Assembly: GCA_019058365.1 (NCBI GenBank)
Contig: JAHPZE010000013.1
Coordinates: 49,231 to 113,230, forward strand
Direction of reading: 5' to 3'
Length of the DNA: 64,000 nucleotides
Origin: Promethearchaeota archaeon
GTDB taxonomy: Archaea > Asgardarchaeota > Lokiarchaeia > Sigyniarchaeales > SOKP01
Shown here: positions 1-37,729 of the stretch, one piece after another
Layout: each line of letters begins with the position of its first letter
Position numbering within the stretch: position 1 is the first letter of the stretch
Program-made: the position numbers and the translations under genes
Notes under the pieces: model-generated
What the model saw: only the letters and a program-made list of their open reading frames with translations
Databases searched by the model: none
Told to the model about the DNA's origin: nothing

Positions 1-421
1 TGGGTTGATATCTAAAAATAAAGTGATATTTCTCTTTTAGTTTGGCAAGAAGATCATCGCTTAATTTATTTGAAATTTTAGCTCTTGTATAAAAACATAA
101 TATTCTTTTTCTGGGATTTAAAACTATTTTTATTAAAATTGGATATTGCTTTGTTTCACTTAAATTAGGCGTTTCAGTATATTTAAAGTAAGATAATTCA
201 GTCTTAATAGTGGGTATATACTTTACATCGATTTCAAAATAATCAGATATATAATAATTTTCATTTACGGGTTCAAATATTTTCTTATACAATCCTGCTT
301 GAAGAATATTGGAATTATTGTCGAAACTAGCTGAATAATTATTATCCTGTAGTATCAGTTGCCTAATTATATCTACTTCATCCTTTATCGCAATATCAAA
401 ATAGATTCTTAACGATGGCAT
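1..421 (-). CDS. Hypothetical protein, partial (runs off left edge); not in ORF track
   Basis: Manual translation: ATG at 421 (MPSLRIYFDIAIKDEVDIIRQLILQ...) stays open to position 1; starts 3 nt after the stop of 425..1549, suggesting an operon. Confidence 0.7.
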   Translation of the reverse strand, partial: MPSLRIYFDIAIKDEVDIIRQLILQDNNYSASFDNNSNILQAGLYKKIFEPVNENYYISDYFEIDVKYIPTIKTELSYFKYTETPNLSETKQYPILIKIVLNPRKRILCFYTRAKISNKLSDDLLAKLKEKYHFIFRYQP

Positions 422-1549: not shown

Positions 1550-1712
1550 AAAAAATATTATTTTTTAATAAATTAATCTACATTATTAACATTGGTTATT
1601 TAAAAATATAAACTTTTTGAAATTAGTAATTTATAAAGAAAAGATCTATGATAGAAATCTTTATATATCAAAAATGAAACATTAGTAATATAGAACAAAA
1701 TTTTAAAATATT

Positions 1713-3986
1713 ATGAATTCGAATTTATTTATATCAAATGAAGTAGTTTTTAATATGATAAAATTACCGTATTACACTATAGATCCAAATATTAGCCCAG
1801 ATGATTATTATAGAATAGTAAAGGGTGCTGAATGGCAATTATTCAACAAACGCTTTTATCCTGCTACGTTTGGAAATAAAATACTATTTATTGGTAATAA
1901 AATAGAACCTCCTAAGAATTTAACAGTGGATAAATATAGATTTTCTTTATCAGAAGACAAAATTACATTAAATTCGATGGATCATAATTATATTCTTTCA
2001 AACATAATTCGTAATGTATTAAGACGACAAGCCTTTTCAAAAGGATACACTGGACCTGAAGGACAAAAATTTTATAAAAGAAATCCATATAAAACAAAAT
2101 TTTTTGCATTTCATGACGCTTTTTATTTAGAAACAGAAGTATTTCCCGATGGTAATATCGGTGTTTGGTTAGATCCTTCTACTAAATGGAAATGGCATTT
2201 GAAAGATTTAATAAATAGTTTAACCCCAGAAGAACAAGAGGATATCTATAAACAACTTGTTGGAAAAAAAATTAAATATCCTAGTGTAAAAAGAAACCAA
2301 CTTTATAAAGGAACTATTACCGAGGTTATTACTAGAACTTATAAAGAATATGAAATCAGTATAAACGGGGAAAACTATACCATTTTTGATTTTTGGATGA
2401 AATCAAGCGAAGATCATAGAAAGTGGTTGGCTAGGAATAAAATCTCACTGAAACCAGAAGGTTTTCCAATAGTTATGGTTCAAATTCCAAACTTAAAATT
2501 CTCCATTCCTTATCCAGTTGAAGTTCTTGAGCTTGTTATTGACATCACTGATCCTTTAATTCCTTTAGATACATTTGACGAAAAAAAAATTCAGGCTCCC
2601 CTTAAAAGAATTAATGAGACATTTAATTTATTTGATCAGATCCTAAATCATGGCTTAGATTTAGGGGATTTTAAAATTACTTTTTCTCGACAATTATATA
2701 ATTGGGAAAAGTCTCCTTACGGGACTATAATTTCTTTAGAAGCACCCAAACTTCAATTTGGGAATGATAACACTATTGATCCATTAAAACCATGGCAAGA
2801 TCCAGATATAAAGAGTGGAATGTTTCAATTTGGACCAGTAGATAAAAAAAAAGAAATAAAGGTATCTTATATAGGTCCATCAAGTGAAAAAGATAATTTT
2901 ATGACATTTAATAAGTACTTGAATCTTCATGCTAAAAAACTGCATTTAGGAACTTTTGAGCTCACGAATATTTTTCCTATTGATAGAATTCATCCAGATA
3001 GGTATTTGCGTATATGTCAAAGTGTTGGTCAACAAATAGAGAATCAAATATCATTTGTCATTTTACCTAAATTTAAAACAACTAAAACCTATTACGCAGC
3101 AAAAAGAGGACTTGGAAAAAATTTTATAAAAAGTGCAATGATACAATGGAACACTTTTAAGAAACTTTTAAGTGCCAGTTCTCAAGGACGACTTTCATTT
3201 GAAAACTATAATATTGCTCTAAAAGCATATGGAAGATTTTTAGAAAGTGGAGAGGCGATCTGGCATCTTAAAGAACCTGCAGGAGGATTAAATGCTGCTA
3301 CTAATAATTATTTTTTGGGATTTGATGTTTCACGTAATCCCGAAAGTAGAAAAGAAGCAGCTGCATATGCTGCAGTTTGTGATAATTATGGAAAAGTTCT
3401 CTATAAAAGCTCTATTGACTCGCATAGAGGAGAAAATATTATTTCTGAAATATTAAGTGATTGGTTCTTCGAAATTGCGACTTCTACGTATGATGAAATT
3501 GGAAATGAGAAAAAAATAGATTGTATGTACCTTTTTAAAGATGGACCTATTTCCCATCCACAGGTTAAGGAGTATGAAAAAGGATCACTTTTGGCAAAGG
3601 AGCGTTTGATGGAGGAGCATTTAATGACAAATGACTCTGATATTAAGACTATTGCGGTTATTAAGCGAGGTTTGCATAGATTCTATGGAGATGAAAAATT
3701 AGGATATAAGATTAACTATTCAGGATTAATTCGTAGCCCTAAAGAAGCGATTCTAATTACTTCTCGCCCAAGGTTTGGAACAGCGGCAACTACTCGAATT
3801 GAGCTTACTCATCAGATGAATAACAACATAGATATTTCTCAAATTGCTAAAATGTTTAATGATTTACGGTATTTGGATTGGAATTCGTTATTTTCTCAAC
3901 CAAAAACTATTTTACCACTTCATATTGTTCAGAATTTAGCTAAATTAAGTAAAGAAGATGTGATTGTACCTTATGATCCAAGGTAA
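1713..3986 (+). CDS. ago: Long prokaryotic Argonaute (N-L1-PAZ-L2-MID-PIWI)
   Basis: PIWI motifs GFDVS, RGE, LFKDG, VIKR, LRYLDW, LPLHIVQNLAK; MID YYAAK...NIALK; PAZ-like segment TIFDFW...PIVMV...YPVEVL; L2 APKLQFG; 757 aa. True start may be the ATG at 1755. Confidence 0.9.
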   Translation: MNSNLFISNEVVFNMIKLPYYTIDPNISPDDYYRIVKGAEWQLFNKRFYPATFGNKILFIGNKIEPPKNLTVDKYRFSLSEDKITLNSMDHNYILSNIIRNVLRRQAFSKGYTGPEGQKFYKRNPYKTKFFAFHDAFYLETEVFPDGNIGVWLDPSTKWKWHLKDLINSLTPEEQEDIYKQLVGKKIKYPSVKRNQLYKGTITEVITRTYKEYEISINGENYTIFDFWMKSSEDHRKWLARNKISLKPEGFPIVMVQIPNLKFSIPYPVEVLELVIDITDPLIPLDTFDEKKIQAPLKRINETFNLFDQILNHGLDLGDFKITFSRQLYNWEKSPYGTIISLEAPKLQFGNDNTIDPLKPWQDPDIKSGMFQFGPVDKKKEIKVSYIGPSSEKDNFMTFNKYLNLHAKKLHLGTFELTNIFPIDRIHPDRYLRICQSVGQQIENQISFVILPKFKTTKTYYAAKRGLGKNFIKSAMIQWNTFKKLLSASSQGRLSFENYNIALKAYGRFLESGEAIWHLKEPAGGLNAATNNYFLGFDVSRNPESRKEAAAYAAVCDNYGKVLYKSSIDSHRGENIISEILSDWFFEIATSTYDEIGNEKKIDCMYLFKDGPISHPQVKEYEKGSLLAKERLMEEHLMTNDSDIKTIAVIKRGLHRFYGDEKLGYKINYSGLIRSPKEAILITSRPRFGTAATTRIELTHQMNNNIDISQIAKMFNDLRYLDWNSLFSQPKTILPLHIVQNLAKLSKEDVIVPYDPR

Positions 3987-4028
3987 AAATTCATATAGAT
4001 GAATATCAAAAATTATATTATAGCAAAC

Positions 4029-4158
4029 AAGACAAAAATAAAAACTAAATTAAAACGATTGGAAAAGAAGAAAATTTATTTGAATAATTTGTGATTATAA
4101 AGGGAGGATAAATTATGCCAGAATTCTTGATTGAATTTATTAATAATCAAAATGAGAA
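4029..4158 (+). repeat. Direct repeat copy 1: nurA upstream region, GGGAGG RBS and first ~15 codons (MPEFLIEFINNQNEK), a truncated nurA start
   Basis: Matches 8530..8659 at offset 4501 with 4 mismatches in 130 bp (manual comparison). Confidence 0.95.
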
Positions 4159-4285
4159 GATCATTTTTAATTTGATATATTTATGCAGGATGATAATTAA
4201 TCATTTTCATTCTTTAAAGAAAAAATTCTATAATGCAAAAAATTTTAAATTAAAACATTAAGGTTAGAATCTTAAGGTGCCATAG

Positions 4286-7200
4286 ATGGGATCAATCCAA
4301 GAAGAAAAGAAGAAAAGAAAGAGAAATGAAAAAGAAGAAGAGAAACTCGAGAAGGTAGAGAAGAAATCAATGAAGAAAGAAGATATAAAAAAAGAATCCA
4401 AAATTATACAAACAGTCATCGATAGAAAGGAAATTGTAGAAGATAGCATTAAAGCAAAAGAAGAAGAAAAATCAGAGGGTAAAGAAAAGAAAATATCCCT
4501 CACGGAAGATGAAAGACTAATTCTAATGACACTAAATTTCGTGGATAGGCATAAAGGCGGGTTGAGCATAACGGGATTTCAGATAAAAGATTTCTTGCAG
4601 TTAATCTTTTTAGGTAAAGATGTTGATAAGCTTTACTTTCAGTTAAAAGAAAAGGAATTTATCGTTAGGAGGAGAGATTCAGAGGATTTCTCTGTTTCAT
4701 TTGAGGGACGACAAGTAGCGGAAAAGCAAGATGATTTATTAAAACACATTTTTATTGAAATCGGAAGGAAATTAGAAGATTTCTTGAGTGAGAGTGGAAT
4801 ATTAAAGAGAGTGCTTTATTTTGCCCAAGAAAATAAATGGAGTTTCAGACAATACCTTCCGAGAATTATACTTAGCTTAGATGAATTGGAACAAGTATTA
4901 ACTATTTTTTTCTTAGACGATTTGTTCTTGGACATTCCAGCTGTTAGTAAAGTGATTAGGAAATTAAGGAAGGAGCAACAATCCAAAATACAAGAAGTAT
5001 TGGCAAATTACTGCAAAGATTTAGATTTCCTGAAAACTCTTGCTATATTGAAAATGGACGAGATTAAGGATAAATTAGGTGTAGAAACCGTTAGTATAGT
5101 CCATTACAAGCCATTTAAAGACATCCTTTCGGAAGTCGTGGAAAAGTCAAAAATAGAAGAAATCTTGGAAAAATTGCTCCTATTGGGAATCACCGAATCA
5201 TATAACTTCTTCGGAATCGATACCCTATCGATTCTAATGAGTGAGGAAAATATCTCCAAGCTAAAGAATTGGATGGCATTTGATGAGGATGCGTTCAAAA
5301 GGCAATTAGAAACCAACTGGAACATATTTATAAATGCAAAAAATGCGGTAGAAAACGCAGTGCTCTTTGATTTTAAGGGATTAATAAAATCCAAAGCTGT
5401 TTTATTTTATAAAAATAATGTCTTGGTCAGAAAGGAAGTGAAAGGTGCTTTTGTAGAAGTGTATGAAAAAGTTAAGGAGAAATTGAAAAATAAGATTAAA
5501 GAAATAGAAAATGTCCTTATATCTCCATTTTATGAGGTTAATAGGGATGAATTAAAACAATTTAGGGGAAAGATCATAATTGTATTGCACGCAGTTGATT
5601 GGTGGACGAAAAAATATTACTTTCCCGTAATTAGAGAAGAAGAATTGGTAAATAATGTGATTCTTCTCATTTCTCCAAAAGAAATCGGTTTTCGTTTAGA
5701 TAAAGCACTGAATTATTCTAATAGTCAAAGAGTATTGGAAATACCAGATAAAAATGTGGAATTTAATGCGGTGGGCGAAATTGATAATATTGAGTTAGTT
5801 AAATCAATTTTAAATGTTTGCGAATGGGTTTTGGAAGAAGAATATTATTCTGTAAAAAGAGCTAAAGAGATTATATATGAAAAACAATACCCTCCAATAT
5901 CTATAGAACAAGCAATAAATCAATTAAAAGAAGGAATGAGAGAGATCGATGGTAAAGTCTTAATAGATGCATTATTAATCTCTATAAATAAACCAACTAA
6001 TTATAGTGGAACTTTTATCTATAGAGATAATGGGCAGTTTACTAAAAATCATTTATGGTATCATTTGGAAAATATACTTAAACTGAAATATAATTTAAAA
6101 GGAGATCATTTCATTAAAATTAAAGAAAGTCTTGAAGAATTAATTGAAGGAAAGGCAAGGATGGATCTATTTACTTTAGGATTAGGTTCTAGACCTGGTT
6201 CTGACATATATTACTCTAAGGAAAAAAAACTTTTATCCATAATATTTAATAATTATAATGTAAAATCTATTATCTTATCTTCAATAGAAAGGTTAGATCA
6301 AATATCAATAGAAATTGTTTGGATTTATCTTAAACTTTTTATTAAAATTGAAGTGAATATCGATGTTAATAGATTTAAAACTATTTATGAGATTATATTT
6401 AATAAAAAAATAGAGAATGATAATGATATTATAAATGCTATTAATAAAACGGGAATCTCTATTGCAGTGAAAAGAGGTACTCATTTTAGTCATTACAGAT
6501 TTCCATATATTTTAGATAATGAATTAGATATCGAATTACTCTCTTTTCTAGAAAAACGAATACAAATTACTCAACCTAATTATGATACTTTTATTAAATT
6601 ATATAAAAAGAAGATTATTGAATTAGTTGGTTTGGATTATCTCTTGAATAATGATGGATATTGTAGAAGAAATAATTTAAGAGAGTTCTTGTGGAAGGTC
6701 TCTCTGGAAGCGTGGGATAAATTTGATTCATATGAGGGATTGATATCATCAAAAGAAAGTGAGATAATAGCTTTAAATCCACTTTTACTAGATGAGTTGA
6801 GGGTATTTCTAAGTGTTCGTAAAAGAAAAATAATTGAAAGCCAAGAAAGATTGAAAGAGGTAGTATTATCATCGAAAATAATTGATTCGTTAATAGAACT
6901 TGACGAAGATCTGGTTATTCTAAAGGGATTTATAACATTACAGAATAAAGAAGATATAACAGTGATAATAGTCCCTTGGTATCTACCAATGTACGAGAAA
7001 TATCTTGGAGAGAAGGCATTAATTGTAATAACTGACCAACCCGACTACAAAACTTTTATAGACACCATTAAAGCTATTAATAAAGAAATAACATTAATAT
7101 TCTTAAAAGATAACCTATTTTACCTATTTTCTACCTTTAGAAATGTTAATTTTATAAATTCCTTACTATCAAAACTGGAAGAGCACGGTTTTGCATTAAT

Positions 7201-8452
7201 CTCAAAAGAAATTTTGTCTTTAGAAACTTCGGAAGAATCGAGGGTGAAGGAAGAGTTAATTACACTACAGGCAGAAAAAGAAGAAACAGGTGAAATATTC
7301 GAAGTGAAAGAATTAGATCTATTTGGAGAATTATTCGATACAGACTTGAAGGGCTTTCCTATTGGGTTGGGAACGGAAGATCCAGTAGTATTGATACTTT
7401 CTAAGACGGAAGACGACAATTACAGTGCCACTCTCCAGATATTATGTAGAGAAATATATAGAGAACTAATTAAAGGCTTGCCCCTCCCGAAAAGAATAAC
7501 AGAAGAAAGAATAGAGGAAGAAACGGATGTGAGTGATAGAATCATATTCGTTGACGATGATAAAGCAAAGAAACTTGGTTTTGGAAAAATATCACGCAAT
7601 GAGAATATTAACTGGGTTAATCTTGGCAAGAAGCTACAAGAATTCTATTCTCAATACTTTGGTTTCTATATTTTTGAAATTCCGATGGATAAAAAGGAAG
7701 AATTTAAAGAAAAACTCATAACTCATACTAAAGATCTTAGACCCAGAATAATCCAAGTAAAGCCCTTATATTTAGGAAGAAGAATTATTTTAGATATTAC
7801 CGAAGAAGGAATTAAGGAGATTTCTGACTTGGTTAAGTTCAAGAAGAAGATATGTAGCCTAATATGGGGATTTGTAACACCGAAGGGCGACGATAGATGG
7901 GAGCGGGGAGATAACTTCGATAACTTCTTTAGTAGTTGCGAAAGTGAATATAATAAAAGATTAAGAAATATGGAGATTGAGAAGATTAATGTTGAGGGTA
8001 AAGAAATGAGTGTTCCAATTCTAGTTAATAGAGGTGTAAACGAGAGTGATCTGCATTTTCGAATCAAGGTCTTTATTGTAAAATACTTGTATGAAACAAA
8101 GAAATATTCAAGGGGTTCTGTAAAAACAGAACAAAAAATAGATGGAAAAGAAATTTACCCTGATATCCAAGCAGGTAAAATCATCTTCGAAGTAGAAACA
8201 CTGTATAACTCTGAAAGACCATTGAGTAAGCTTGTAGAAAAGGTCAAAGATTATAAGAACGATGGAAAAAAGCTCATTATCGTGTTAAAAAATGTTGATG
8301 TTTTTCTATATTACACACAACTAATAGATTTGGAAGAAGAATTAAGGGATGAGGGTATGGATGTGGAGTTCAAATCTCTTAATTTAGGGGATAATATAAT
8401 TTTTCACATAAAAGAAATTGGTAAGTCTTACCATTCTTTCTTTAAAAAATAG
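4286..8452 (+). CDS. Large hypothetical protein with charged N-terminus, N-terminal winged-helix-like segment and C-terminal PD-(D/E)XK-like nuclease domain
   Basis: 1388-aa ORF; C-terminal ESDLH...KTE...YPDI...FEVET resembles a restriction-endonuclease-fold active site. Confidence 0.6.
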   Translation: MGSIQEEKKKRKRNEKEEEKLEKVEKKSMKKEDIKKESKIIQTVIDRKEIVEDSIKAKEEEKSEGKEKKISLTEDERLILMTLNFVDRHKGGLSITGFQIKDFLQLIFLGKDVDKLYFQLKEKEFIVRRRDSEDFSVSFEGRQVAEKQDDLLKHIFIEIGRKLEDFLSESGILKRVLYFAQENKWSFRQYLPRIILSLDELEQVLTIFFLDDLFLDIPAVSKVIRKLRKEQQSKIQEVLANYCKDLDFLKTLAILKMDEIKDKLGVETVSIVHYKPFKDILSEVVEKSKIEEILEKLLLLGITESYNFFGIDTLSILMSEENISKLKNWMAFDEDAFKRQLETNWNIFINAKNAVENAVLFDFKGLIKSKAVLFYKNNVLVRKEVKGAFVEVYEKVKEKLKNKIKEIENVLISPFYEVNRDELKQFRGKIIIVLHAVDWWTKKYYFPVIREEELVNNVILLISPKEIGFRLDKALNYSNSQRVLEIPDKNVEFNAVGEIDNIELVKSILNVCEWVLEEEYYSVKRAKEIIYEKQYPPISIEQAINQLKEGMREIDGKVLIDALLISINKPTNYSGTFIYRDNGQFTKNHLWYHLENILKLKYNLKGDHFIKIKESLEELIEGKARMDLFTLGLGSRPGSDIYYSKEKKLLSIIFNNYNVKSIILSSIERLDQISIEIVWIYLKLFIKIEVNIDVNRFKTIYEIIFNKKIENDNDIINAINKTGISIAVKRGTHFSHYRFPYILDNELDIELLSFLEKRIQITQPNYDTFIKLYKKKIIELVGLDYLLNNDGYCRRNNLREFLWKVSLEAWDKFDSYEGLISSKESEIIALNPLLLDELRVFLSVRKRKIIESQERLKEVVLSSKIIDSLIELDEDLVILKGFITLQNKEDITVIIVPWYLPMYEKYLGEKALIVITDQPDYKTFIDTIKAINKEITLIFLKDNLFYLFSTFRNVNFINSLLSKLEEHGFALISKEILSLETSEESRVKEELITLQAEKEETGEIFEVKELDLFGELFDTDLKGFPIGLGTEDPVVLILSKTEDDNYSATLQILCREIYRELIKGLPLPKRITEERIEEETDVSDRIIFVDDDKAKKLGFGKISRNENINWVNLGKKLQEFYSQYFGFYIFEIPMDKKEEFKEKLITHTKDLRPRIIQVKPLYLGRRIILDITEEGIKEISDLVKFKKKICSLIWGFVTPKGDDRWERGDNFDNFFSSCESEYNKRLRNMEIEKINVEGKEMSVPILVNRGVNESDLHFRIKVFIVKYLYETKKYSRGSVKTEQKIDGKEIYPDIQAGKIIFEVETLYNSERPLSKLVEKVKDYKNDGKKLIIVLKNVDVFLYYTQLIDLEEELRDEGMDVEFKSLNLGDNIIFHIKEIGKSYHSFFKK

Positions 8453-8529
8453 TATAAATAGAGCTTTAAATATAATTGTAATTGGAATCTATTTCAGATT
8501 TTATTAAATTTGAAAATATTAGAGCATTT

Positions 8530-8659
8530 AAGACAAAAATGAAAACTAAATTAAAACAATTGGAAAAGAAGAAAATTTATTTGAATAATTTGTGATTATA
8601 AAGGGAGGATAAATTATGCCAGAATTCTTGATTGAATTTATTAATAATCTAAATGAAAA
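8530..8659 (+). repeat. Direct repeat copy 2 (functional nurA RBS and 5' end)
   Basis: Near-identical to 4029..4158. Confidence 0.95.
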
Positions 8660-9878
8660 AACCAAGCGAATTTTAGAGAATTTTGAAAATAAGGAAATTA
8701 ATAAGCTATACGAGAAGTTATTTCCTTTTTATTGGATTGATCATGACATAGAAAATCATGATCCCACTCAAGAGGTAATAGCTATTGATAGTAGTAGGGG
8801 GCATTGTCCGACTAATAATGGTGGATTTTTTTTTGTTTCTAGAGCTATGGCTTATGGAAATCAAAAAAAATATAAAGAAGTTTATACAGATTTTGACTTT
8901 TCAAATGTTAAAACACAATCTGATTATATTGGAAGAGTAATGGAATGGACGGAGCATTCAGTCGCAATACAAGCTATTAAAAAGGGATTTACAAAGTATG
9001 TTTTAATTGATGGTTCTATTTATGGGAGATTATCTCATTTACCAATGGAGTTGAACTTAGATAACAACAAGGGTTTTATGATTCAATATTTTGAGACTTA
9101 CTTAAATCTATTGGATATATGTAAAAAGAAAAAAATACCTCTAATTGGTATTAGTAAAGAAAGTCGAACTTCCTTTTTCCGGGAGTTTTTAATAAAACAA
9201 ATATTAAAAAGTAAAATTTCAAACTCCCAATTACTAAATAAATTACTTTCAGAAGCTTTAGATTTTCCAAAAAATGCAATTAAACTTGCAAAAAGTACAA
9301 AAGATGACGATATCATTTTACTTACAGAAGAACTTATTGCCCGAAAACCAGACTCTTTATTGATTTTAAATAATGCTCATCACGCAGGATATACAAAACC
9401 ACTTATATTAGGGGGAAGTGCGAGATGGCGACGGGCTGAAAAGAAAATTAAGGTGGATTCAAAGGGTTATATTGAGTCTAGCTTTCCAATATTATCAGAA
9501 GATATTAAATTTTTAAATCAAGCTAAAAAAATTATTACTAAGATGCTGGATTTTCCGAGCATCGTGTCTTTTCATATTCTACCCATCCTCGCAGATACAC
9601 CTTTAAGAATAGATATTCCATCATGGTATTTTGGTATAGATAGAAGGCTTTTAGATGTTGGGTGGCCTGAAGTAGTAAATTTGGACTTAAGTGAAATCCT
9701 TAAATTAATCTCAGCAGGTTATTGTGGATTGGGAAATTATAATATTTGGCTTACAGCCGTGGATAATGAAGTTAGATTATCCAGAAAAGATTTTGAAGAA
9801 TTATATTTAAAAAAGTTTGAAGAAATTATAGGTAAAAAAGCAACACCAAGAGGTTATAGACGTGTTAGATACCCGTAA
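8616..9878 (+). CDS. nurA: NurA 5'-3' nuclease
   Basis: AIDSS and LIDGS acidic motifs, MEWTE, GISKES, C-terminal GNYNIWLTAVDNEVR; overlaps herA. Confidence 0.85.
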   Translation: MPEFLIEFINNLNEKTKRILENFENKEINKLYEKLFPFYWIDHDIENHDPTQEVIAIDSSRGHCPTNNGGFFFVSRAMAYGNQKKYKEVYTDFDFSNVKTQSDYIGRVMEWTEHSVAIQAIKKGFTKYVLIDGSIYGRLSHLPMELNLDNNKGFMIQYFETYLNLLDICKKKKIPLIGISKESRTSFFREFLIKQILKSKISNSQLLNKLLSEALDFPKNAIKLAKSTKDDDIILLTEELIARKPDSLLILNNAHHAGYTKPLILGGSARWRRAEKKIKVDSKGYIESSFPILSEDIKFLNQAKKIITKMLDFPSIVSFHILPILADTPLRIDIPSWYFGIDRRLLDVGWPEVVNLDLSEILKLISAGYCGLGNYNIWLTAVDNEVRLSRKDFEELYLKKFEEIIGKKATPRGYRRVRYP

Positions 9879-11475
9879 AATTGGAATTATAATAGGACAA
9901 GTAAAAACATCTGAATTTATTTTTGCAACTAACTATGATGTAAACCGGTTAGAATATGTAGCTATAGAATCACAAGAATTAATAGAAACTGAGGAAGGGA
10001 ACTTAGAAGAAATACCAATTGTAATAATAAGTCAGATATTTGAAGTATGGGCGGATTCAAGAGCGCTTCCTGAAGGTCTGAAAATTGAAGATGCAGAAAA
10101 AATTATGGCTGCAGGATTAGCAGATTCAAAATTTTTTGCTAAAACTCGTATCCTTGGATATTTACATGAAGAAAATGTCTTTCAGCCTAGAAGAGCGATA
10201 AATCCAGGTAATTTTGTACACATAGCTCCTAATGAACTTTTAGAACAATTTTATTCTTACCCAGAAGAAGAAGGATTGCATATAGGTCATTTAATTACTC
10301 GATCTGATGTTCCAGTATATATTACTGTAAATGGATTTAGAAGACACCTCTCTATATTGGCTCAAACAGGAGGGGGAAAAAGTTATTGTGCTGGGGTGCT
10401 CACAGAAGAATTACATAGAAAAGGAGCAACTATCGTGATCATAGACCCACACGCTGATTATGTGTTTTTGGGTTCAAGAATTGACGGAACAAGAATAGAT
10501 CGCGTTAATGTTTTTAGAACGCCTCAAAGTACAGGGAGATATTCAGAAGTAGATATAGGAAGGATGATACAACAATATGAAGTAAGGTTTTCTGATTTAA
10601 CAATTGATGAAATTTTTATGATTAGCGGCATTCGTGAGTCATTTACTCGAATTAGAAATGCAGTACAAGACGCATTAACTAATTTAAGAGAAAATTCGAG
10701 AGCAAATGCTGATAGACCCCTAGTAGGACCAGACGGTTATGATTTGAATGATTTATTACAAGAATTACAAGATTTAAATACTAATGATTCCAGGAATGCT
10801 GTAAGATATATAAGAAGGATTCATAGATTAGGAGTTTTTAGTAATGCTACTACTGATATCTCAAGAATCATTCTTCCTCAACAAATTTCCGTAATTGATT
10901 TGTCAGGATTATCAGACAATGTAGCAGATTATATAACTAACCGAATTCTTTCTGAAATATATGAACAAAGGAGAAATGAAACTTACCCTTATCCTGTATT
11001 TATATTTATGGAAGAGGCACATAGATTCTTGCCAAATAAAGGAAGAACTTATTCCATTGAAACTGTCAAAGAAATTTCTGCTGAAGGACGGAAATTTGGA
11101 GTTTTTTTAACTTTAATTACGCAAAGACCATATAAAATTGATCAAGACGCTTTAAGCCAGTGTAATAGTCAAATAATATTACGAATCACAAACTCGGAAG
11201 ATCAAAATGCAATAAGAACTAGTTCCGAAAAGTTGAGTGAAAGTTTACTTAATGATCTACCCGGCTTAAATCCTGGAGAAGCTGTTATTGTTGGTAATTT
11301 GACAAGGGCACCAGTAATGGTAAAAATTCGAAGGCGAGTAACAAGAGAGGGTGGCGCGGATATTGATGTTGTTAGTAGCTTAAGAGCTGCCAGAGAAGTC
11401 GTTGAACAAGGAGAAGAAGAACAAGCAGAGCAGGCTCATGAGGAACTAGAAGAATTAAGAGAGATGTTGGAGTGA
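9862..11475 (+). CDS. herA: HerA/FtsK-family helicase/translocase
   Basis: N-terminal HAS-barrel-like region, RHLSILAQTGGGKS (Walker A), IIDPHADY, EEAHRF (Walker B), EGRKFGV, TQRP. Confidence 0.95.
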   Translation: MLDTRKIGIIIGQVKTSEFIFATNYDVNRLEYVAIESQELIETEEGNLEEIPIVIISQIFEVWADSRALPEGLKIEDAEKIMAAGLADSKFFAKTRILGYLHEENVFQPRRAINPGNFVHIAPNELLEQFYSYPEEEGLHIGHLITRSDVPVYITVNGFRRHLSILAQTGGGKSYCAGVLTEELHRKGATIVIIDPHADYVFLGSRIDGTRIDRVNVFRTPQSTGRYSEVDIGRMIQQYEVRFSDLTIDEIFMISGIRESFTRIRNAVQDALTNLRENSRANADRPLVGPDGYDLNDLLQELQDLNTNDSRNAVRYIRRIHRLGVFSNATTDISRIILPQQISVIDLSGLSDNVADYITNRILSEIYEQRRNETYPYPVFIFMEEAHRFLPNKGRTYSIETVKEISAEGRKFGVFLTLITQRPYKIDQDALSQCNSQIILRITNSEDQNAIRTSSEKLSESLLNDLPGLNPGEAVIVGNLTRAPVMVKIRRRVTREGGADIDVVSSLRAAREVVEQGEEEQAEQAHEELEELREMLE

Positions 11476-11482
11476 ATAACAT

Positions 11483-12580
11483 ATGAGAATTGCTCATTTA
11501 GCTGATACACATTTAGGATATAAACAATATAATCTTGATGAAAGAGAACAAGATATCTATGATGCATTTAATCAAGCTATTGATAAAGCAATTGAAGAAC
11601 GTGCAGATGTAATTATTCATTCAGGAGACCTTTTCGAAAGAAGCCATCCTCCAATAAAAGCATTATTGACCTTAAAGGATGCTCTAAAAAAGATTAGGGG
11701 CAAAATTAAATTTCTATCTGTATTAGGAGAACATGATATTCCTAAGAGAAAAGCAATAATACCACATAAATTGTTTGATATTCACCTTCTTGGAGCAAAT
11801 TATAAGCTAGAAACGACAAAAATAGATAATGTATTATTTGCTGGAATATCAAATCTTAAAGGTAGATATGTTGGAACGTTAAAAGAAGAGATAAAAAGAT
11901 TTGATAAAATTGCTGAAGACTATAAACACTCAGTATTAATTTTACATCAAGCGATAAAAAAATATTTGCCATTCGAAGGTGCTTACCAATTAACATTAGA
12001 TGAGCTCCCAAGAAAAGCTAGTTATTATGCATTAGGTCATATACATGCTAAAAATGAATTAAAGTTTGGAAATGGGCTATTAGTTTATTCTGGTTCTACA
12101 GAGATTATGAGTAAAGATGAGATCTCTTCTTGGAAGAACAAGGGGAAAGGTTTTTATCTTGTTGATTTAGAAAGTGATGATATCAATTATGAATTTATTC
12201 CTCTCGATATTAGACCTCAAGTCTCTATTGAATTAAATGTTGCTAATATCGAAAAAATCCTTGATTCTCTAATTTTTGATAAAAAACCCTTGTTACATTT
12301 AAAAATATTTGGAGAAAAAATAGAAAAAAGTTATGTTCAAGAACAAATAGAGAGAATTGTAAGAGATAAAGTAATTTTTCATCGTATTCTATTTCGAGAA
12401 GCAGGAATAAAGGAGGTTAAAATACCTCAAGATGCAATAAATCTCTTATCAATATTTAAAGAATATTTTGAAAAAGAAGAAATTGGTGAATTTACTAAAA
12501 ATCTTTATGATATTTTATCCGAACGTGATATAAATTCTGCGATAAGTCTCGCTAAAAATTTTATGGAGGAGTATGACTAA
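11483..12580 (+). CDS. mre11: Mre11 nuclease
   Basis: Phosphoesterase motifs ADTHLG, SGDLFE, GEHD, LHQ, LGHIH, YSGS. Confidence 0.93.
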   Translation: MRIAHLADTHLGYKQYNLDEREQDIYDAFNQAIDKAIEERADVIIHSGDLFERSHPPIKALLTLKDALKKIRGKIKFLSVLGEHDIPKRKAIIPHKLFDIHLLGANYKLETTKIDNVLFAGISNLKGRYVGTLKEEIKRFDKIAEDYKHSVLILHQAIKKYLPFEGAYQLTLDELPRKASYYALGHIHAKNELKFGNGLLVYSGSTEIMSKDEISSWKNKGKGFYLVDLESDDINYEFIPLDIRPQVSIELNVANIEKILDSLIFDKKPLLHLKIFGEKIEKSYVQEQIERIVRDKVIFHRILFREAGIKEVKIPQDAINLLSIFKEYFEKEEIGEFTKNLYDILSERDINSAISLAKNFMEEYD

Positions 12581-15275
12581 AAAGATGATAATTAAATCAA
12601 TTAAAATGGAAAACTTTATCTCACACCAAAAAACTGAATTCCCTTTCCCTGTGGGGGTATTAGTAATAGTCGGAGAAAATGGTTCAGGAAAATCTTCTAT
12701 TATTGATGCTATCTTCTATTCTTTGTGCGGCGTACAAGTTAGGGGTGATAATGTTGATGATTTAATAAGGGAAGGAACGAAGAAGGCAAAAGTCAATTTG
12801 CTATTTGAGCATAATGGTATTGCATATGAAATTGAGAGAGTACGTGAAAAAGATGTCAATCCATATGCTTTATTGAAAAAGGATGGAAGTATAACAGCAA
12901 GAAAGCAAACTCCTGTAAGTGAAGAAATTGCAAGGATTTTAGGCATGGATAAAGAAGCAATAATTAATTCAGTTTTTATTCGACAGGGAGAAATAACAAA
13001 ATTAATTGATGGTACGCCTAGTGAAAGAAAAAAAACTATTGCTAAATTAATTGGCATTGAAAAATTAGAGAAATGTTATGATAAAATGAGAAATGTCATA
13101 GATTACTTCGATAATCAATTGAATGATTTTGATATAATTAATACAAAATTACAAGGAGAGCAAGAATCTAAAACCGAGTTAGATTCAGAAATTGAGGAAC
13201 TTACAGGAGATATTAATAAAATAAAAAAAGATGTCATAATTGCTGAAGACATTTTTAAAAAAACAGAGGATAAAAAGAAACTTTGGGAAAACAAGCGAAA
13301 AGAACATCAGGAACTGAAAAGTAAGAAAACAAAGAAAGGGGAACAGATCTCGTCTACTAATGAGAAAGTTAATAATCTAACTACTCAAGTCAATGATGCT
13401 AAAAAAGCTCGGGAAAGAGTTACTGAATTAGAACCTCAAATAAGGAATATTGAAATATTAGAGAAATATATAGAAAACTTTAGGAATAAAAAAATTACTA
13501 CCGAAACTCTTGAACGATTGAATAAAGAATTTGAAAAGGTAAATCAATGGATAACAATTTTAAGTATTAATAAAGACAAATTTAAAGAATTTAATGAAAT
13601 TAGTGAGAGTTTAAGCCAAAAAGAAGATGAAATAGAGAACTTGAGAAAAATTGAAAAGGAGTATATTGAACTGAAAAAAGATATTGAAAACACTCAAAAA
13701 AAATTAACTGAATACAAGGATGAGATTGAAAATATTAATGAAAAAGCATTGAAAGTTTTACCCAGAGCAGAGAAAAAAGAAAAAGACAAAAAAATGAAAG
13801 AACTAAATAGTAAATTAAAAGAATTAGAAGGAAATATATCAAATATAATAAGTTCTAATGGAGCTATTAAAGGTAGAATTAAAGAAATTGACAATTATTT
13901 ATTAAAATTTCAAGATAGCGATGAGTGCCCTGTATGCTCAAGTGAACTATCACCTAACCATAAACAGAAAGTTATAACGGATTTTAAAAGAGAGAAAAGT
14001 GGTAAAACAAAAGAAATCGAAGAGAATAGGGAAAATATCTCCTCTTTAGGAAAGGAGCAAAATCAATTCAGAGATCAACTTGATAACATAAAAAGTTTAG
14101 ATTTAGATAAATATAAAGAGTTAAAAGAAAAATTTGAAAATCTGGAAACTCAGTTAAAAGAGTTTGAGATAAATAGACAAGAGAAGGGAAGAGCAACAGA
14201 AAAATTGAGACTATTGGAAGATCAAAGCAAAATTGAAAAAAAAAGCGTTGAAGAATTAAAACCAAGATATAATGATTATATTGCAGCAGAAAAAGCATTG
14301 GAAAATGAGAGAGAGATAAAGGAAATACAAAATGAGATCAATGAATTTAATACTAAATTAACTAAGATTATGGAAGTTGATTCAAAATTAGCTAATCAAT
14401 TAAAGAAAATTCCTGAGAAACCTGAAGAAGAACTTAATCAACTTAGAAAATTAAAAGAGGAATATATTGTTGCTAAAGGTGAAAGTCAGAAATTAGAGAA
14501 ATTTCAAAAAGATTTAATCAATACAGAAAAAATTTTGAATGATTTTATCTCTGAATCAAAAAAAATTGATTCTGAAATTAATTCTTTAGGATATAACGAA
14601 GAACTATATGAACAAGTTCTAAAAAAGAACAATGAAGCAAGTAGTACCTTAGAAAAGCTAAAAAATAGTGTGAATCTAAAAATCATTGAATTAGATAAAA
14701 AAAACCAAAAATTAAATGAACTTAAACAAAAAATTAACGATCTACTTAAACAAATGAAATCTTTTGAAAAAATTAGAAATTTTAAATTAGTCTTAGGAAA
14801 AATAAGAGATGCGTTTTCTAAAGAAGGATTACAAAAAACTATAAGAAAAAAATTTGCCCCAAAGATAACAAATTTTGCAAAAGACTACTTAGAATCATTC
14901 AACATTAATATTTCAGACATTTCCATTAATGAAGATTTGGATATTTCAATCTTAGGGCGAAGCGGTGTACTTTCTATTAATTCGATAAGCGGTGGTGAAA
15001 AAGTTGCTGTTGCTATTATCTTAAGACTTGCTATAGCTAGAATTTTATCGAGCCAGATATCTACAATAATCATGGATGAACCAACGACTCATCTTGATTC
15101 GCTAAGAAGAAAAGAGTTAGTTGAAGCAATGAAAAGTTTCAAAAAAGAAAGTCATACAATTCCTCAGTTAATAATTGTTACACACCATCAAGAACTTGAA
15201 GAATTAGCTGATACTCTATTTAAAGTAGATATAAAAGAAGGTGTCTCAAAGGTGGAAGAACTTACATATATATAA
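12573..15275 (+). CDS. rad50: Rad50 SMC-like ATPase
   Basis: Walker A GENGSGKS, Q-loop RQGE, coiled coils with CPVC zinc hook, SGGE signature, MDEPT Walker B, VTHH. Confidence 0.95.
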   Translation: MTKKMIIKSIKMENFISHQKTEFPFPVGVLVIVGENGSGKSSIIDAIFYSLCGVQVRGDNVDDLIREGTKKAKVNLLFEHNGIAYEIERVREKDVNPYALLKKDGSITARKQTPVSEEIARILGMDKEAIINSVFIRQGEITKLIDGTPSERKKTIAKLIGIEKLEKCYDKMRNVIDYFDNQLNDFDIINTKLQGEQESKTELDSEIEELTGDINKIKKDVIIAEDIFKKTEDKKKLWENKRKEHQELKSKKTKKGEQISSTNEKVNNLTTQVNDAKKARERVTELEPQIRNIEILEKYIENFRNKKITTETLERLNKEFEKVNQWITILSINKDKFKEFNEISESLSQKEDEIENLRKIEKEYIELKKDIENTQKKLTEYKDEIENINEKALKVLPRAEKKEKDKKMKELNSKLKELEGNISNIISSNGAIKGRIKEIDNYLLKFQDSDECPVCSSELSPNHKQKVITDFKREKSGKTKEIEENRENISSLGKEQNQFRDQLDNIKSLDLDKYKELKEKFENLETQLKEFEINRQEKGRATEKLRLLEDQSKIEKKSVEELKPRYNDYIAAEKALENEREIKEIQNEINEFNTKLTKIMEVDSKLANQLKKIPEKPEEELNQLRKLKEEYIVAKGESQKLEKFQKDLINTEKILNDFISESKKIDSEINSLGYNEELYEQVLKKNNEASSTLEKLKNSVNLKIIELDKKNQKLNELKQKINDLLKQMKSFEKIRNFKLVLGKIRDAFSKEGLQKTIRKKFAPKITNFAKDYLESFNINISDISINEDLDISILGRSGVLSINSISGGEKVAVAIILRLAIARILSSQISTIIMDEPTTHLDSLRRKELVEAMKSFKKESHTIPQLIIVTHHQELEELADTLFKVDIKEGVSKVEELTYI

Positions 15276-15533: not shown

Positions 15534-16313
15534 ATGAAGCAATTTGATACTCAAATCACCAGAGCACTATCATTGATACCTGAAACAAAGAAAGTATTAA
15601 TTAGACTGGCTAATGGTAAATCCATTCAAGAAATAAAGGACTTGATACTTAAAGACAATCTATTAGCAAAAAATACAGATAGTACACGTAAGAAAATATG
15701 GTATGCATTAAAATCAAGATTCCTAGAAAATTCAGAGGTTGATTTAAAATCTTTAAAAAAGATTGTAAACTCAAAACTCCTTCCCTCTATCAAAGATTTG
15801 ATAATTTATTATTATTTTTGTAAATATGAATATATAGTATATGAATTAGTTACTGAACCTATATTTAATCAATATAAAATGGGTTTTAAGGAAGTGGATA
15901 AAGAAAAAATAATCGAGTATTTTGAATCAGTATCAAATACATCTCATCCAGAAATAAACAATTGGACAGAGGAGACAAGAGCACGTTTAATTAGACATAC
16001 TTTAGCAATCCTAAAAGATTTTAAAATCTTAAAGGGAAGTAGAAAGAAAGAGTTTTATGAATTTTTTGTTCCCTTAGAAGTTGTGTTATATATTTTGTTT
16101 TATTTGAAGATAAAGGGTAATCCTTTAAATAGAATAATAAATCATAAAGATTTCAACTTATTACTTCTTGAAAAAGAAGAGATCATAGAATATTTGCACG
16201 AAGCTTCAAAAAAGGGTTATCTTATCTTCAATCAATCTGGTAATATTTATGAATTAAAAACAGAAATTAACTCTCTGGAGGATTTAGTAAATGAGTTTAA
16301 GAGAAAAATTTAA
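15534..16313 (+). CDS. brxA: BREX protein BrxA (DUF1819-like)
   Basis: Size, first position in BREX order, NLL.KNT..TRKK and WTEETR...L.DF.IL motifs. Confidence 0.8.
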   Translation: MKQFDTQITRALSLIPETKKVLIRLANGKSIQEIKDLILKDNLLAKNTDSTRKKIWYALKSRFLENSEVDLKSLKKIVNSKLLPSIKDLIIYYYFCKYEYIVYELVTEPIFNQYKMGFKEVDKEKIIEYFESVSNTSHPEINNWTEETRARLIRHTLAILKDFKILKGSRKKEFYEFFVPLEVVLYILFYLKIKGNPLNRIINHKDFNLLLLEKEEIIEYLHEASKKGYLIFNQSGNIYELKTEINSLEDLVNEFKRKI

Positions 16314-16830
16314 AAATTTAGAGAATATGATTACTCAACGAATCCATCTAATTAATCAATTTTCAGGAATTCCTTTTGTAATTCTAATATATGATCCTCA
16401 AGATCAAAAGGAATGTTACGAATATATCGAGGATTTAGAGAAAAATTTAAAAAAGAATGGAAAAAAGATCTTAAAAATTCCAATTGGAGATTTTGTTTTT
16501 AATTATTTCGAAGAAAAAAATCAAATAGGGGAAATGATTGAATTTGATAAAAAAGAACCAGAATTAGTCCGCCAAGAACTCTCTAATGTGTGTGAAAGAT
16601 ATTTTAATGATCATATTCATTCAAAATTAGAAAAAAATAATCCAGATATAATTTTTTTTACTAATGTTGGAGGACTATACCCATATAGTAGACTTTCAAA
16701 TATTTTAAAGAATCTTGAAAAAATTAAAATTCCCATTATTGCATTTTACCCTGGTACAATAATTAATGATGAATTATACTTTCTTAATAAGTTTAAAAGT
16801 GATGATTATTATAGAGCTTTTAGGATATAA
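16291..16830 (+). CDS. brxB: BREX protein BrxB (DUF1788-like)
   Basis: YDP, GGLYPYSR, FYPG and terminal YYRAF motifs; overlaps brxA. Confidence 0.88.
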   Translation: MSLREKFKNLENMITQRIHLINQFSGIPFVILIYDPQDQKECYEYIEDLEKNLKKNGKKILKIPIGDFVFNYFEEKNQIGEMIEFDKKEPELVRQELSNVCERYFNDHIHSKLEKNNPDIIFFTNVGGLYPYSRLSNILKNLEKIKIPIIAFYPGTIINDELYFLNKFKSDDYYRAFRI

Positions 16831-16853
16831 AAATCAAAGGGTGTTTAGAAGAA

Positions 16854-19800
16854 ATGAAAATTAAAGATATTTTTATCAATGAAATAACGCGTGAAATAAC
16901 AAGTGTTGTAAATGTAGATGATATTGAATTTTTTGGTCAAGAAATTGAGGAATATGTAGTCACTGAACAATTAGACAAATATTTTCTAAAGGTTTTTGAG
17001 GATTATGCTAATTCCGCTAGGATAAAAACTGAAAAAATAGGTGTTTGGATTTCAGGATTTTTCGGAAGCGGAAAATCTCACTTTGCTAAAATGTTAGGAC
17101 ATTTATTAAAAAATGATAATATAAAAACAACTACCGGTGTTATGAAGAATTCTCATGAACTTTTTAGAGATAGGTTAATAGGCTGCGCTTATGAAAATGA
17201 TATAAACAGAAGTCTATTTGAAATTGACAAAAATATTGATTCTCATGTGATTATGTTTCAGATACAATCCGAATCTGACCAATTAAGTAAAAAGAGCATA
17301 ACAAAAACAATGTATCAAATGTTTTTAAAATATCAAAATCTCTGTGAACACTTACAGATAGCAGAATTAGAACTTGAACTCATTTTAAATGATAAATTTA
17401 ATGAATTTAAAGAAATAATTAGACAAGATGAGAAAAAAGAATGGGAAGAAGTAAGGCAATCATTATTATTTTCAAAGAGACCAATTAAAAAAGCATTATA
17501 CAAACTAACAGATTACGATTTCTCTTCTGAAGAAAATGCTGAAATGTGGTATAACAAATTAATAGATAGTTTTGAACTAAGTCCTACAAAATTTACAGAG
17601 AGATTATTGAATTTTCTTAATGCTAGCAAATCAGAAAAAATATCTGATCACTTTATCTTCATTATAGATGAGATAGGTCAATTTATAGGAGATTCGAATG
17701 ATTTACTTTTAGAGTTACAATCAATAGCAGAACAATTTGCAATTCAAGGAAAAGGAAGGTTATGGCTAGTAGTCACTGCTCAAGAAAAATTAGATGAAAT
17801 TATTGAAGGTGTGAAGGGTCAAGAGAATCAATTTGCTAAAATTAAAGATCGATTTTATCTACCAACTAATCTAACTTCAGAAAATATTAAAAAAGTGTTA
17901 GAAGAAAGAATTTTAAAGAAAAAAAGTAGTGCTGAAAAAGAATTAAGAAAATTATTTATAAATTTCCAAGGAATTATATCATTCATTTCAAGTTTTCAAT
18001 CTAATAGAGCAATACCAGAAATAACAGAAAGTAATTTTATTAAAGATTATCCATTTTTATCATACCAGATAGAAATCATTCAAAGTATTTTTGCTAATAT
18101 ACGAAAAGAAGCAGGTCATACTAGAAAAATCACAGGGACAGAGAGAAGCATGATAAATGTTTCACAGAGTATATTTAGAGATGAGAATATTAGAATGGGT
18201 GATTCTGAATTAAACCGATTAATTACTTTCAATAACATTTATGATCAAATAATTTCAGAAATAAATTCTGAAACTGTAAGAGATATCTCTCAAGCATCAG
18301 ATTTAAAAATTCATGATCAAGATGACGATAAAATATGTTTAAAAGCTTTAAAATGTATTTATCTACTACAACAATTAGATTATGTCCCTAATACATTCGA
18401 GAATATTATAAGAGTTCTTATTAATGATTTAACTATTAAAAAAACTAATTTTGAAAATAAAGTAAAAAATGCTTTAGATGAGCTCATTAGAGCAACATTT
18501 ATTGTTGAGGATAATGGAGTTTATCGTTATTTATCAAGGGTTGAAAAAAATATTGAAGAAGATATTTCTAGTACGCAGGTAAAATCCAGAGAAATAACTT
18601 TATTAGCTAGAGAACTTCTTAAAGAGATTTTTAAAAATAAAAATAAAATAAACTATAAGAAAATAACATATTTCGATTTAAAAATAGATCTAGATGAGGA
18701 AAATTTTACATCTAAAGGTGATATTCTGTTAAAAATTCACTCTCCAATCTATTTAGAATTTGGGCTTATTAAAAAAGATGATATCGTCACTGAAAGCCTT
18801 AATCCCAAAAATAAAAATATATTATTCTGGCTTCCGAATGAAACTAATAAATATAAAAATGATTTAGAGAAAATAATAAAAACAAATAAAGTAATTGAGC
18901 AAAGAAAAAGAAATCCACAAAAAAGTAAAGAAGAGAATGAAATTTTAAGAGAAAAAGAAGTTTCAATAAAAACTTTTCAACAACGAGTCATTAAAAACTT
19001 TGAGGATAGTTTGAAGACAGGTTTTTTAATTTATGATTCAAATGTTGAAGATTTGATTGAAAAAAGTATTTCAATAGATAAAGTTCTTGAAGAACAAATA
19101 TGTGAAAATATACCATATATTTATTCTAAATTTGAAAAGTACAGTGTGACTGAATCCAATATCAATAAATTATTAAAGGAAAATAATACTAAATTAAAAG
19201 ATATTGAACCTGATTTAAAAATCTTTGATGGGGATGGACGTTTATTGGTAGATAATAAATTAGTAAAAGAAGTTTTTGATAGAATTAAAGAAGAAAACCA
19301 AATTGGGAATCCAATCAGTGGAAAAGACATCTTAAACTATTTTACCGGAATTCCATATGGATGGGAAAAAAACCTAATAAGATTTTTAGTTCTTGCTTTA
19401 TTTCGAAATGTTAATATCTTCATTAACTATAATTCCAAAAACATCTATGACTTTAAAAAATCAATTGAAGGGAATGTTTTTACTAATTCAAGAAATTTTA
19501 ATAAATCTCTATTGAAATATGAAAAAGGAGAAGATATAACTCTTAATGATAGAAGAAATATCAAAAAATCATTGAAAGATATTTTTGACTATTCCACTGA
19601 AGATAATATACTTAAGCTTAGTGATGGCATTGATACTTGTTTAAATAATCTAATTAATGAAAATAATAATCAAAAAATAATCTTTACTCAAAATGATTTA
19701 GCTTTAAAAGATTTTTTTTATATTATTGAGGAACTATATGAACCAATAATAAAGGCAGATAAATTTAATAAAAAATTTCAATTATATTTGGAAAAAGTTG

Positions 19801-20468: not shown

Positions 20469-20478
20469 GAGGGGTTAA

Positions 20479-24141: not shown

Positions 24142-24144
24142 TTT

Positions 24145-26526: not shown

Positions 26527-26540
26527 TATATATTAATGAT

Positions 26541-32105: not shown

Positions 32106-32128
32106 GTAAATTTTTTTTTGAACTACTA

Positions 32129-32251
32129 CTATTTTTTATTCTTCGCAGCTGCACTTTGAGCTCTTGCTTTGAACTCTTGGTTTTTCCTGGTTTTATCAGC
32201 ATGAGATTGTATTCTTCGAGCCGATTTTGCTGTCATCTTATTTTTACCCAT
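32129..32251 (-). CDS. 40-aa basic Ala-rich peptide resembling SMP (seed-maturation/LEA-like) small proteins; below ORF-track cutoff
   Basis: GGAGGTGA SD upstream of ATG 32251; MGKNKMTAKSARRIQSHADKTRKNQEFKARAQSAAAKNKK*. Confidence 0.75.
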   Translation of the reverse strand: MGKNKMTAKSARRIQSHADKTRKNQEFKARAQSAAAKNKK

Positions 32252-32313
32252 CCTTTTCACCTCCTTAGTTTTATTTTCAATATATTTTACAATAGCTATT
32301 CAACATGATTGGA

Positions 32314-32585
32314 TTAGATTAACTTAAATATTGATGCTCCTGGATTAGGACAGTTCAGTTCTTTCAATATATATCCTTCATGTGCCATATCCTCTATAAA
32401 ATTCCTTGAGCGAAAATAATTCCTTAATACTTGACCATTTCTGTAGCCATGAATAATAAATAGATTTTTATCTCCCGAAGAGAGACAATCTTCTAAAAGA
32501 TTAAGTATTTCTTCAATTGCATCGAATAGTCTGAATCCATGAAGATCAGCTCTAATTTCTTTTTCAACTCCTCAAATTTTACCAT
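32314..32585 (-). pseudogene. Stand-alone Smr-domain protein, frameshifted or non-canonical start
   Basis: Frame 32571->32314 reads ...IRADLHGFRLFDAIEEI...FIIHGYRNGQVLR...NPGASIFKLI* (DLHG, IIHG, NPG Smr motifs); nearest ATG (32585) is one base out of frame. Confidence 0.7.
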
Positions 32586-32746
32586 TTTTTTTCTATTTCT
32601 TAGGTTAAGATTCTAAAAAAAAAACCTTATCCATTAATTAAATCGAAAAATTAAAAATAAAAAAATTCGTATCGAAAATCACTACCTGATCTGGTAGGGA
32701 TAAATATGAAAACTTCCTTAAATTAAATAGAGTAATAATATTCAAT

Positions 32747-37498: not shown

Positions 37499-37501
37499 TA
37501 A

Positions 37502-37690: not shown

Positions 37691-37729
37691 AGAAAGAAGG
37701 AAAAAACTAATGGGAATAATTTATAATTT

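Follow-up and report, generated by a model that had tools for sequence, protein, structure and literature searches.

The question raised by this locus is whether a prokaryotic Argonaute (pAgo) can be served by a DNA end-resection machine encoded beside it. It is well established that in archaea Mre11–Rad50 binds free DNA ends and HerA–NurA resects them. Bacterial long pAgos obtain DNA guides from the processing of breaks by RecBCD or AddAB (10.1101/2020.03.01.971358), and the source of pAgo DNA guides where these enzymes are absent has been stated to be open (PMC12094033). The window, that is, the whole 64,000-nt stretch of DNA analysed here (C30:49231-113230), comes from a Promethearchaeota genome of 4.74 Mb with 29% GC. 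In it the initial annotation had described a long pAgo gene co-directional with a tight nurA-herA-mre11-rad50 cluster followed by BREX, and all of these ORFs are found at the positions claimed (Table 1). The genes of the cluster overlap by 17 nt (nurA/herA) and 8 nt (mre11/rad50) or are separated by 7 nt (herA-mre11).

Table 1 Features of the window relevant to the Argonaute-resection locus (nucleotide positions within the window)
Feature	Position	Strand	Evidence and remarks
5' part of 265-aa gene, no assigned function	1..421	-	extends left beyond the window; partner of the Orc1/Cdc6-like gene
Orc1/Cdc6-like AAA+ ATPase, C-terminal winged helix, 374 aa	425..1549	-	Foldseek; divergent from ago
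Divergent intergenic (promoter) region	1550..1712	.	DNA-level conservation across long- and short-Ago loci (blastn)
Long prokaryotic Argonaute, 757 aa	1713..3986	+	tetrad D538-E574-D610-Q740; MID Y460/K464
Repeat copy 1, relic of nurA leader and start (ATG 4115)	4015..4163	+	
Inserted 1388-aa gene	4286..8452	+	C-terminal PD-(D/E)XK-like motif (by eye); outside the module
Repeat copy 2, functional nurA leader and start	8516..8664	+	
NurA nuclease, 420 aa	8616..9878	+	D58, E113, D132, K181
HerA helicase/translocase, 537 aa	9862..11475	+	Walker A 170-174, Walker B 384-385, arginine motif 410, QRP 421
Mre11 nuclease, 365 aa	11483..12580	+	D8, H10, D49, H84, H155, H186, H188
Rad50, 900 aa	12573..15275	+	Walker A, Q-loop, CxxC zinc hook 452-455, signature 806, Walker B 835
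Type I BREX (brxA, B, C, pglX, pglZ, brxL)	15534..28592	+	PADLOC; island neighbour, outside the module

The product of ago has a Piwi match (E = 1e-8), and sequence searches of the PDB gave weak matches. Its structural model (pLDDT 85.6; best Foldseek E = 1e-32) has the full-length long-pAgo fold of about 750 residues, N-L1-PAZ-L2-MID-PIWI, and aligns end to end with eukaryotic and prokaryotic long Argonautes with TM scores of 0.60–0.68. The nearest homologues are supplied by Promethearchaeota (Lokiarchaeia) assemblies. In trees built solely from the fetched homologues, the protein belongs to a well-supported clade of 19 Argonautes found by a search of the whole library, from Lokiarchaeia, Heimdallarchaeia, Bathyarchaeota, Micrarchaeota and unnamed sources. 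According to the sequence alignment, all 19 carry the tetrad D-E-D-Q, D538, E574 and D610 being invariant, and several outgroups have Asp or His in the fourth column. In canonical slicers this position is D, H, K or N, so the Gln departs from the DEDX pattern of active long-A pAgos. The long-B type, with a PIWI domain devoid of catalytic residues, does not fit either, three of the four residues being invariant. Slicing by this Argonaute is therefore uncertain given the non-canonical Gln, although the invariance of the three acidic residues speaks against an inactive site. Our literature searches for DEDQ Argonautes returned no paper on them. Gln at the fourth position also reaches many more distant long Argonautes (P0021–P0080), and D-E-D-Q thus marks a large uncharacterised group.

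The cassette looks functional as judged from its sequence. All four genes are present with their catalytic motifs intact, and the four NurA residues listed in Table 1 are invariant across 32 homologues. Motif III of Mre11 reads GEH instead of GNH, a Glu-for-Asn change shared by the sister copies, and the metal ligands are intact. Repair-type models give HerA its highest scores, and its partner is NurA; the anti-phage pairs Sir2-HerA and DUF4297-HerA do not describe it.

The proposal that this set is an accessory copy is supported by the rest of the genome. A second, unrelated herA-nurA-mre11-rad50 set lies beside uvrD on contig C13, and its Mre11 has orthologues of 67–97% identity in 18 of 36 congeners. 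The Mre11 type of the window occurs in 3 of the 135 genomes of the family and is resident in distant Asgard families, and no close match to the window NurA is present among the 36 congeners sampled. The window set is thus not a single, vertically inherited housekeeping copy; from the C13 set and the rarity of the window type in the family we conclude that it is an accessory, horizontally acquired one. The gene order, which had been offered as a hint of the same, fails as evidence: nurA-herA-mre11-rad50 is the usual order in nearly all the Asgard loci fetched, so that the order is silent on accessory status and we have rejected this argument. Among six genomes with the ago-resection layout, five have another mre11, of resident type, elsewhere. 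In G203 the Ago-linked set adjoins uvrD and may be the housekeeping copy, its only complete one. The locus beside uvrD (G000:C13:17890-24316, compared with L094) holds one of two unrelated resection sets depending on the congener, indicating that replacement within the genus has reached even the housekeeping copy.

The 4.5 kb between ago and nurA are flanked by a direct repeat of 149 nt (the two copies 93% identical, at a spacing of 4501 nt), which spans the start of nurA with its ribosome-binding region and initial codons. In the first copy the ATG lies 128 nt past the ago stop codon and the frame is lost after 11 matching codons, bearing out both the second nurA start noted in the initial annotation at ~130 nt and the adjacency of ago and nurA before the insertion. 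The simplest history suggested by the sequence is that the two genes were once adjacent and that the orphan gene was inserted later. Read depth, determined on contigs only from a run that is the likely, though not certain, source of the assembly, is even at ~85x across the region and 177x in the repeat core, consistent with two real copies. An assembly artefact at the repeat is unsupported by the depth; a same-copy circular form is compatible with the contigs alone. The inserted 1388-aa gene has zero matches in Pfam, PADLOC and NCBIfam. It has four homologues (40–63% identity) in which the columns of the PD-(D/E)XK-like motif are invariant, and the only one with context sits in a defence island lacking ago and nurA, for which reason we have rejected the gene as a component of the module. 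Its insertion may have loosened the co-transcription of ago and cassette in this genome.

The pairing of ago with nurA recurs within the D-E-D-Q clade, nurA directly following ago in six of the seven intact lokiarchaeial members. The window is one of the six. In three others (L012, L013 and L050) ago is followed by a divergent NurA, by HerA and, where the contig reaches, by an Mre11-Rad50 fusion; in L043 it is followed by a resident-type set of four genes and in L014 by nurA, OLD, WYL and herA genes. The Argonautes of the window and L012 are sisters with 82% identity and their cassettes are ~25% identical. In trees of NurA, HerA and Mre11 the linked cassettes fall into three clades, each of which also contains copies without an Argonaute, and the hypothesis that the linked NurAs arose once is rejected (p-AU 2e-60). 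L014 retains, just after ago, a relic of a window-type nurA start matching in 8 of 9 residues, a score reached by none of 20000 shuffles. The link of ago to a window-type cassette therefore predates the window genome, and another nurA replaced that cassette's nurA in L014. Outside Lokiarchaeia, members of the clade lie beside mre11-rad50 (L033 and L039; the 768-aa and 457-aa genes next to it in L033 are not demonstrable as HerA and NurA), beside mre11-rad50 together with an AddAB-like pair (L036), or beside UvrD-PD-(D/E)XK fusions (L040, L046 and L047). Two members, L034 and L061, have a Cas4-like neighbour, further non-Loki members adjoin other nucleases, and L045 has no co-directional partner. 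An outgroup Argonaute is located between nurA-herA and mre11-rad50.

The same association is found with Argonautes of other kinds. The closest relative of the window cassette (47–70% identity), in the congener G219, follows a short pAgo and REase-APAZ pair, and its divergent upstream genes are the same as those of the window. A third, unrelated long Argonaute with canonical-looking aspartates (D..D..D) heads a fusion-type cassette in G231 which is 81–84% identical to that of L012, yet the Argonautes of the two are unrelated; in G223 the same D..D..D Argonaute heads a resident-type cassette by way of a NERD-helicase. The linked Argonautes thus comprise three lineages (D-E-D-Q long, D..D..D long, and short pAgo with REase-APAZ), for which a single origin is rejected (p-AU 2e-5). 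Each stands directly upstream of resection cassettes, which are themselves of three unrelated lineages. We conclude from these sequence relationships that Argonaute and cassette are exchanged independently and that unrelated types have been paired several times. The self-contained Ago-resection module suggested initially thus stands in part: the pairing is repeated and the cassette accessory, but it is not one fixed, co-evolving system, as the partners are swapped independently.

In 161 genomes of the class, a resection operon is found within one intervening gene in 6 of the 18 Argonaute loci, a number that includes G018, added from a separate search. None of nine large restriction or BREX methylase loci has a resection operon so placed (20 loci were found, of which eleven represent one orthologous conserved locus, leaving nine counted). 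The difference has a Fisher p of 0.07, from a small control and with relatives that are non-independent. For comparison, ~0.6% of positions in the window genome lie within 5 kb of a resident nurA. Most resection operons have no Argonaute, including window-type ones in G056 and G279. The recurrence that the initial annotation set as a check is observed in three unrelated Argonaute lineages and, as a second set also exists, the window does not hold the genome's only repair genes beside an ago confined to one genome.

The genes upstream of ago are not confined to ago loci. The 374-aa protein has Foldseek matches to ORC/Cdc6 (E = 3e-10) and is a candidate regulator or element initiator. Its gene is divergent from ago in all seven intact lokiarchaeial members of the clade and occurs also without ago. 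The 265-aa gene, of a family absent from Pfam and the Atlas, is 76% identical to its homologue in L013 and adjoins the AAA-wH gene in nearly all loci. A blastn match runs through the promoter region in L012, L013, L014, L050 and L091, with similar blocks in L116. A scan for sigma-70 promoters and terminators gave hits at chance level, this model being the wrong one for archaea. At other loci a CARF-HTH (Csa3-like) gene takes the place of the divergent regulator. The same slot is occupied in G204 and G205 by a NERD-helicase with a resection set and no Argonaute, and in G255 and G226 by a short pAgo with no resection genes; the pair of Orc1/Cdc6-like and 265-aa genes is also found beside unrelated cargo.

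We propose that Argonaute receives both its guides and its single-stranded targets from free DNA ends processed by the cassette, and give this reading a probability of roughly 0.55. The locus would then be a modular archaeal DNA-interference locus comprising a divergently transcribed regulator and an Argonaute with its own NurA-HerA-Mre11-Rad50 set, Argonaute and set being expressed together. From linear or cut invader DNA the cassette would release short single-stranded fragments to be loaded as guides, and it would expose single-stranded tails, which would be the sole DNA accessible to pairing by a mesophilic Argonaute. Its role would match that of RecBCD and AddAB for CbAgo, with the difference that the cassette is carried with the Argonaute. 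Argonaute and cassette would be linked through the DNA product and not through a fixed protein contact, and such coupling at the level of the product would explain the interchangeable partners. If the Gln at the fourth position makes slicing weak or absent, as is possible, the cassette would then destroy the marked DNA. Short pAgo/REase-APAZ systems are usually RNA-guided, so the supply of guides is unable to explain that pairing and the exposure of targets alone can. In favour of end processing we have counted the accessory status of the set, its repeated independent pairing with Argonautes, the comparison of 6/18 with 0/9, the relic in L014, the non-Loki Argonautes beside AddAB-like, UvrD-nuclease, Cas4-like or Mre11-Rad50 genes, and the precedents of RecBCD/AddAB-dependent guides and ACE1. 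Against it we have counted the small size of that control and its non-independent relatives, the Ago-free operons, the slots that hold a NERD-helicase without Argonaute or a short pAgo without resection genes, the possible housekeeping role of the linked set in G203 and the insert in the window genome. The pairing of ago with resection genes probably shows how archaeal Argonautes obtain single-stranded DNA against invaders. A broader proposal, of a plug-and-play Argonaute immunity widespread in archaea with the resectosome as guide and target engine and D-E-D-Q as a new catalytic class dependent on it, is more tentative and falls somewhat short of even odds.

The varied cargo of the slot is the main support for the principal alternative, a shared regulon or insertion hot spot: defence genes would enter a place between the regulator and nurA that is induced by DNA damage or invasion, and Argonaute would gain expression there while leaving the resection products unused. 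Its tenants are long Argonautes of two kinds, a short Argonaute, a NERD-helicase and unrelated genes. A 165-aa chimeric ORF (L057:639-1136), which joins the start of a DEDD-type Argonaute to the last 119 residues of a DEDQ-type one, implies that the two types replaced each other in one slot. CARF-HTH regulators flank ago loci and Ago-free nurA operons alike, and in Sulfolobus Csa3a co-activates cas and herA/nurA genes (PMC5587795). A slot tied to nurA nevertheless leaves the AddAB-like, UvrD-nuclease and Cas4-like partners outside Asgard archaea without explanation, and the pairing has arisen anew with cassettes of three lineages and with two kinds of regulator; we regard the hot spot as unlikely on balance, with an appreciable chance of being correct. 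The Argonaute might instead be a non-slicing marker of targets, with guides from elsewhere, that recruits or loads HerA-NurA or Mre11-Rad50 much as DdmE is reported to recruit the helicase-nuclease DdmD (10.1101/2024.05.10.593530). The invariant Gln in a column where outgroups have Asp or His, and the three loci in which a UvrD-nuclease fusion follows ago, would suit such an effector. It would require a specific interface, yet near-identical Argonautes pair with unrelated cassettes, one linked lineage has canonical-looking aspartates, and the tetrad shows no variation at its first three positions, as would be expected of an active site in use; we consider this effector quite improbable.

OLD genes flank many of these loci (C30:46514-48490 in the genome itself, L012, L014, L043, L173 and L174), and RecBCD restrains OLD in E. 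coli (PMC13648713), so that the extra resection set could be imagined to clear self DNA ends and thereby keep an OLD nuclease or the Argonaute from firing on the host. L013 and L116 have no OLD, and a resident set is already present in the hosts; we consider such a safeguard very unlikely. A housekeeping repair operon with a chance neighbour would agree with the nurA-first order being the Asgard norm and with the window type being resident in other Asgard families. The second set in the genome, the rarity of the type in the family and the recurrence of the pairing leave this scarcely any probability, and for the window genome it is already largely refuted.

End processing for Argonaute, the reading that we prefer, has parallels in several described systems. 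The window resembles CbAgo and TtAgo in having a long pAgo, and the DNA guides of those two come from the processing of double-strand-break ends (10.1101/2020.03.01.971358); there, however, the processing is done by a housekeeping helicase-nuclease encoded elsewhere and the Argonaute is a canonical slicer, whereas here an extra set is co-encoded and the tetrad ends in Gln. In APACE1, a long-A pAgo with the Cas4-family ACE1 (PMC12094033), a co-encoded repair-related nuclease processes guides, which recalls the two D-E-D-Q clade members with a Cas4-like neighbour. ACE1 is one small nuclease in a heterodimer, while the partner here is a four-protein machine that is swapped freely, and no adjacent Cas4-family ACE gene is present in the window. 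DdmDE (10.1101/2024.05.10.593530) is a DNA-guided pAgo with a helicase-nuclease against invading DNA, as is proposed here, but DdmD is a fixed, fused partner to which HerA-NurA and Mre11-Rad50 are unrelated enzymes; no DdmD/E gene, profile or PADLOC match was found in the window. The archaeal herA-mre11-rad50-nurA operon (PMC13748450) has, like the window, all four genes coupled and their motifs intact; the window set differs in being an additional copy, acquired horizontally, that lies in a defence island and is headed by an Argonaute, and Asgard NurA is uncharacterised. HrAgo1 and HrAgo2 (PMC11217426) provide the likeness of a lokiarchaeial Argonaute in an operon with putative guide-making enzymes. 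HrAgo1 is eukaryote-like, RNA-guided and DEDH with RNase III and helicase neighbours, whereas the window Argonaute groups elsewhere and has DNA-end-processing neighbours. In Sulfolobus, Csa3a co-regulates an immune system with resection genes through a CARF-HTH factor (PMC5587795), and similar regulators flank many ago-resection loci, but that case concerns CRISPR adaptation and a regulatory link to resident genes, and the window an Argonaute and a dedicated copy.

Accessory nucleases and helicases of pAgos are already known, and the pairing with nurA-herA-mre11-rad50 is the new part. Searches for Argonaute with these genes and for MjAgo with Rad50, conducted outside subscription journals, returned no description of the linkage, in agreement for that literature with the initial remark that it was not known to have been described. 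The ago-resection loci name a candidate guide-making machine for organisms without RecBCD or AddAB and define a large D-E-D-Q Argonaute group. All the parts needed to reconstitute the system are available from low-GC sediment organisms, and the natural swaps provide controls. Mre11-Rad50, ancestor of the eukaryotic break sensor, has been drawn into defence loci in the archaea most closely related to eukaryotes and, if the broader proposal is true, Asgard archaea would offer a precedent among prokaryotes for a link between end sensing by Mre11-Rad50 and innate immunity.

The BREX genes after rad50 are a chance neighbour; they are missing from other ago-resection loci, for which reason we rejected them as a component of the system. 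With pglZ as a control, the class yielded a single further locus, and resection genes are absent from its neighbourhood. The island contains further genes at 28662-41739 and 46785-48368 of the window (a 1147-aa orphan, a 1583-aa HTH/TPR protein, 523-aa and 454-aa orphans and an HNH protein), a PIN-domain gene at 41957-42856 and, immediately left of the window, an OLD-family ATPase-nuclease (G000:C30:46514-48490), which is 54–61% identical to the OLDs after the resection cassettes in L012, L133 and L173.

The genome has a second Argonaute (G000:C39:134438-137881, L005), a 471-aa short Piwi protein between genes of 233 aa and 431 aa in a neighbourhood without resection genes. Window-type ago is also present as several broken or partial copies in congeners and metagenomes (L009/L049, L010, L008, L091:10264-10713 and L058), consistent with frequent gain and decay, and the micrarchaeal clade members L040/L041 and L047 adjoin type IV secretion genes, which places them on conjugative elements. 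A stand-alone NurA-domain gene (G000:C2:16013-17347, L001) has counterparts in other Lokiarchaeia. After rad50 of two window-related cassettes (L116:1-2859 and L031:3565-8529) there are three genes of ~455, 220 and 970 aa, the last SMC-like, which look like a MksBEF/Wadjet-type set. Directly upstream of nurA in three Ago-free operons (L124:5105-6784, L127:2669-4366 and L129:5137-6660) lies a gene of 507–565 aa whose product, by eye, looks like a nuclease of the metallo-beta-lactamase fold.
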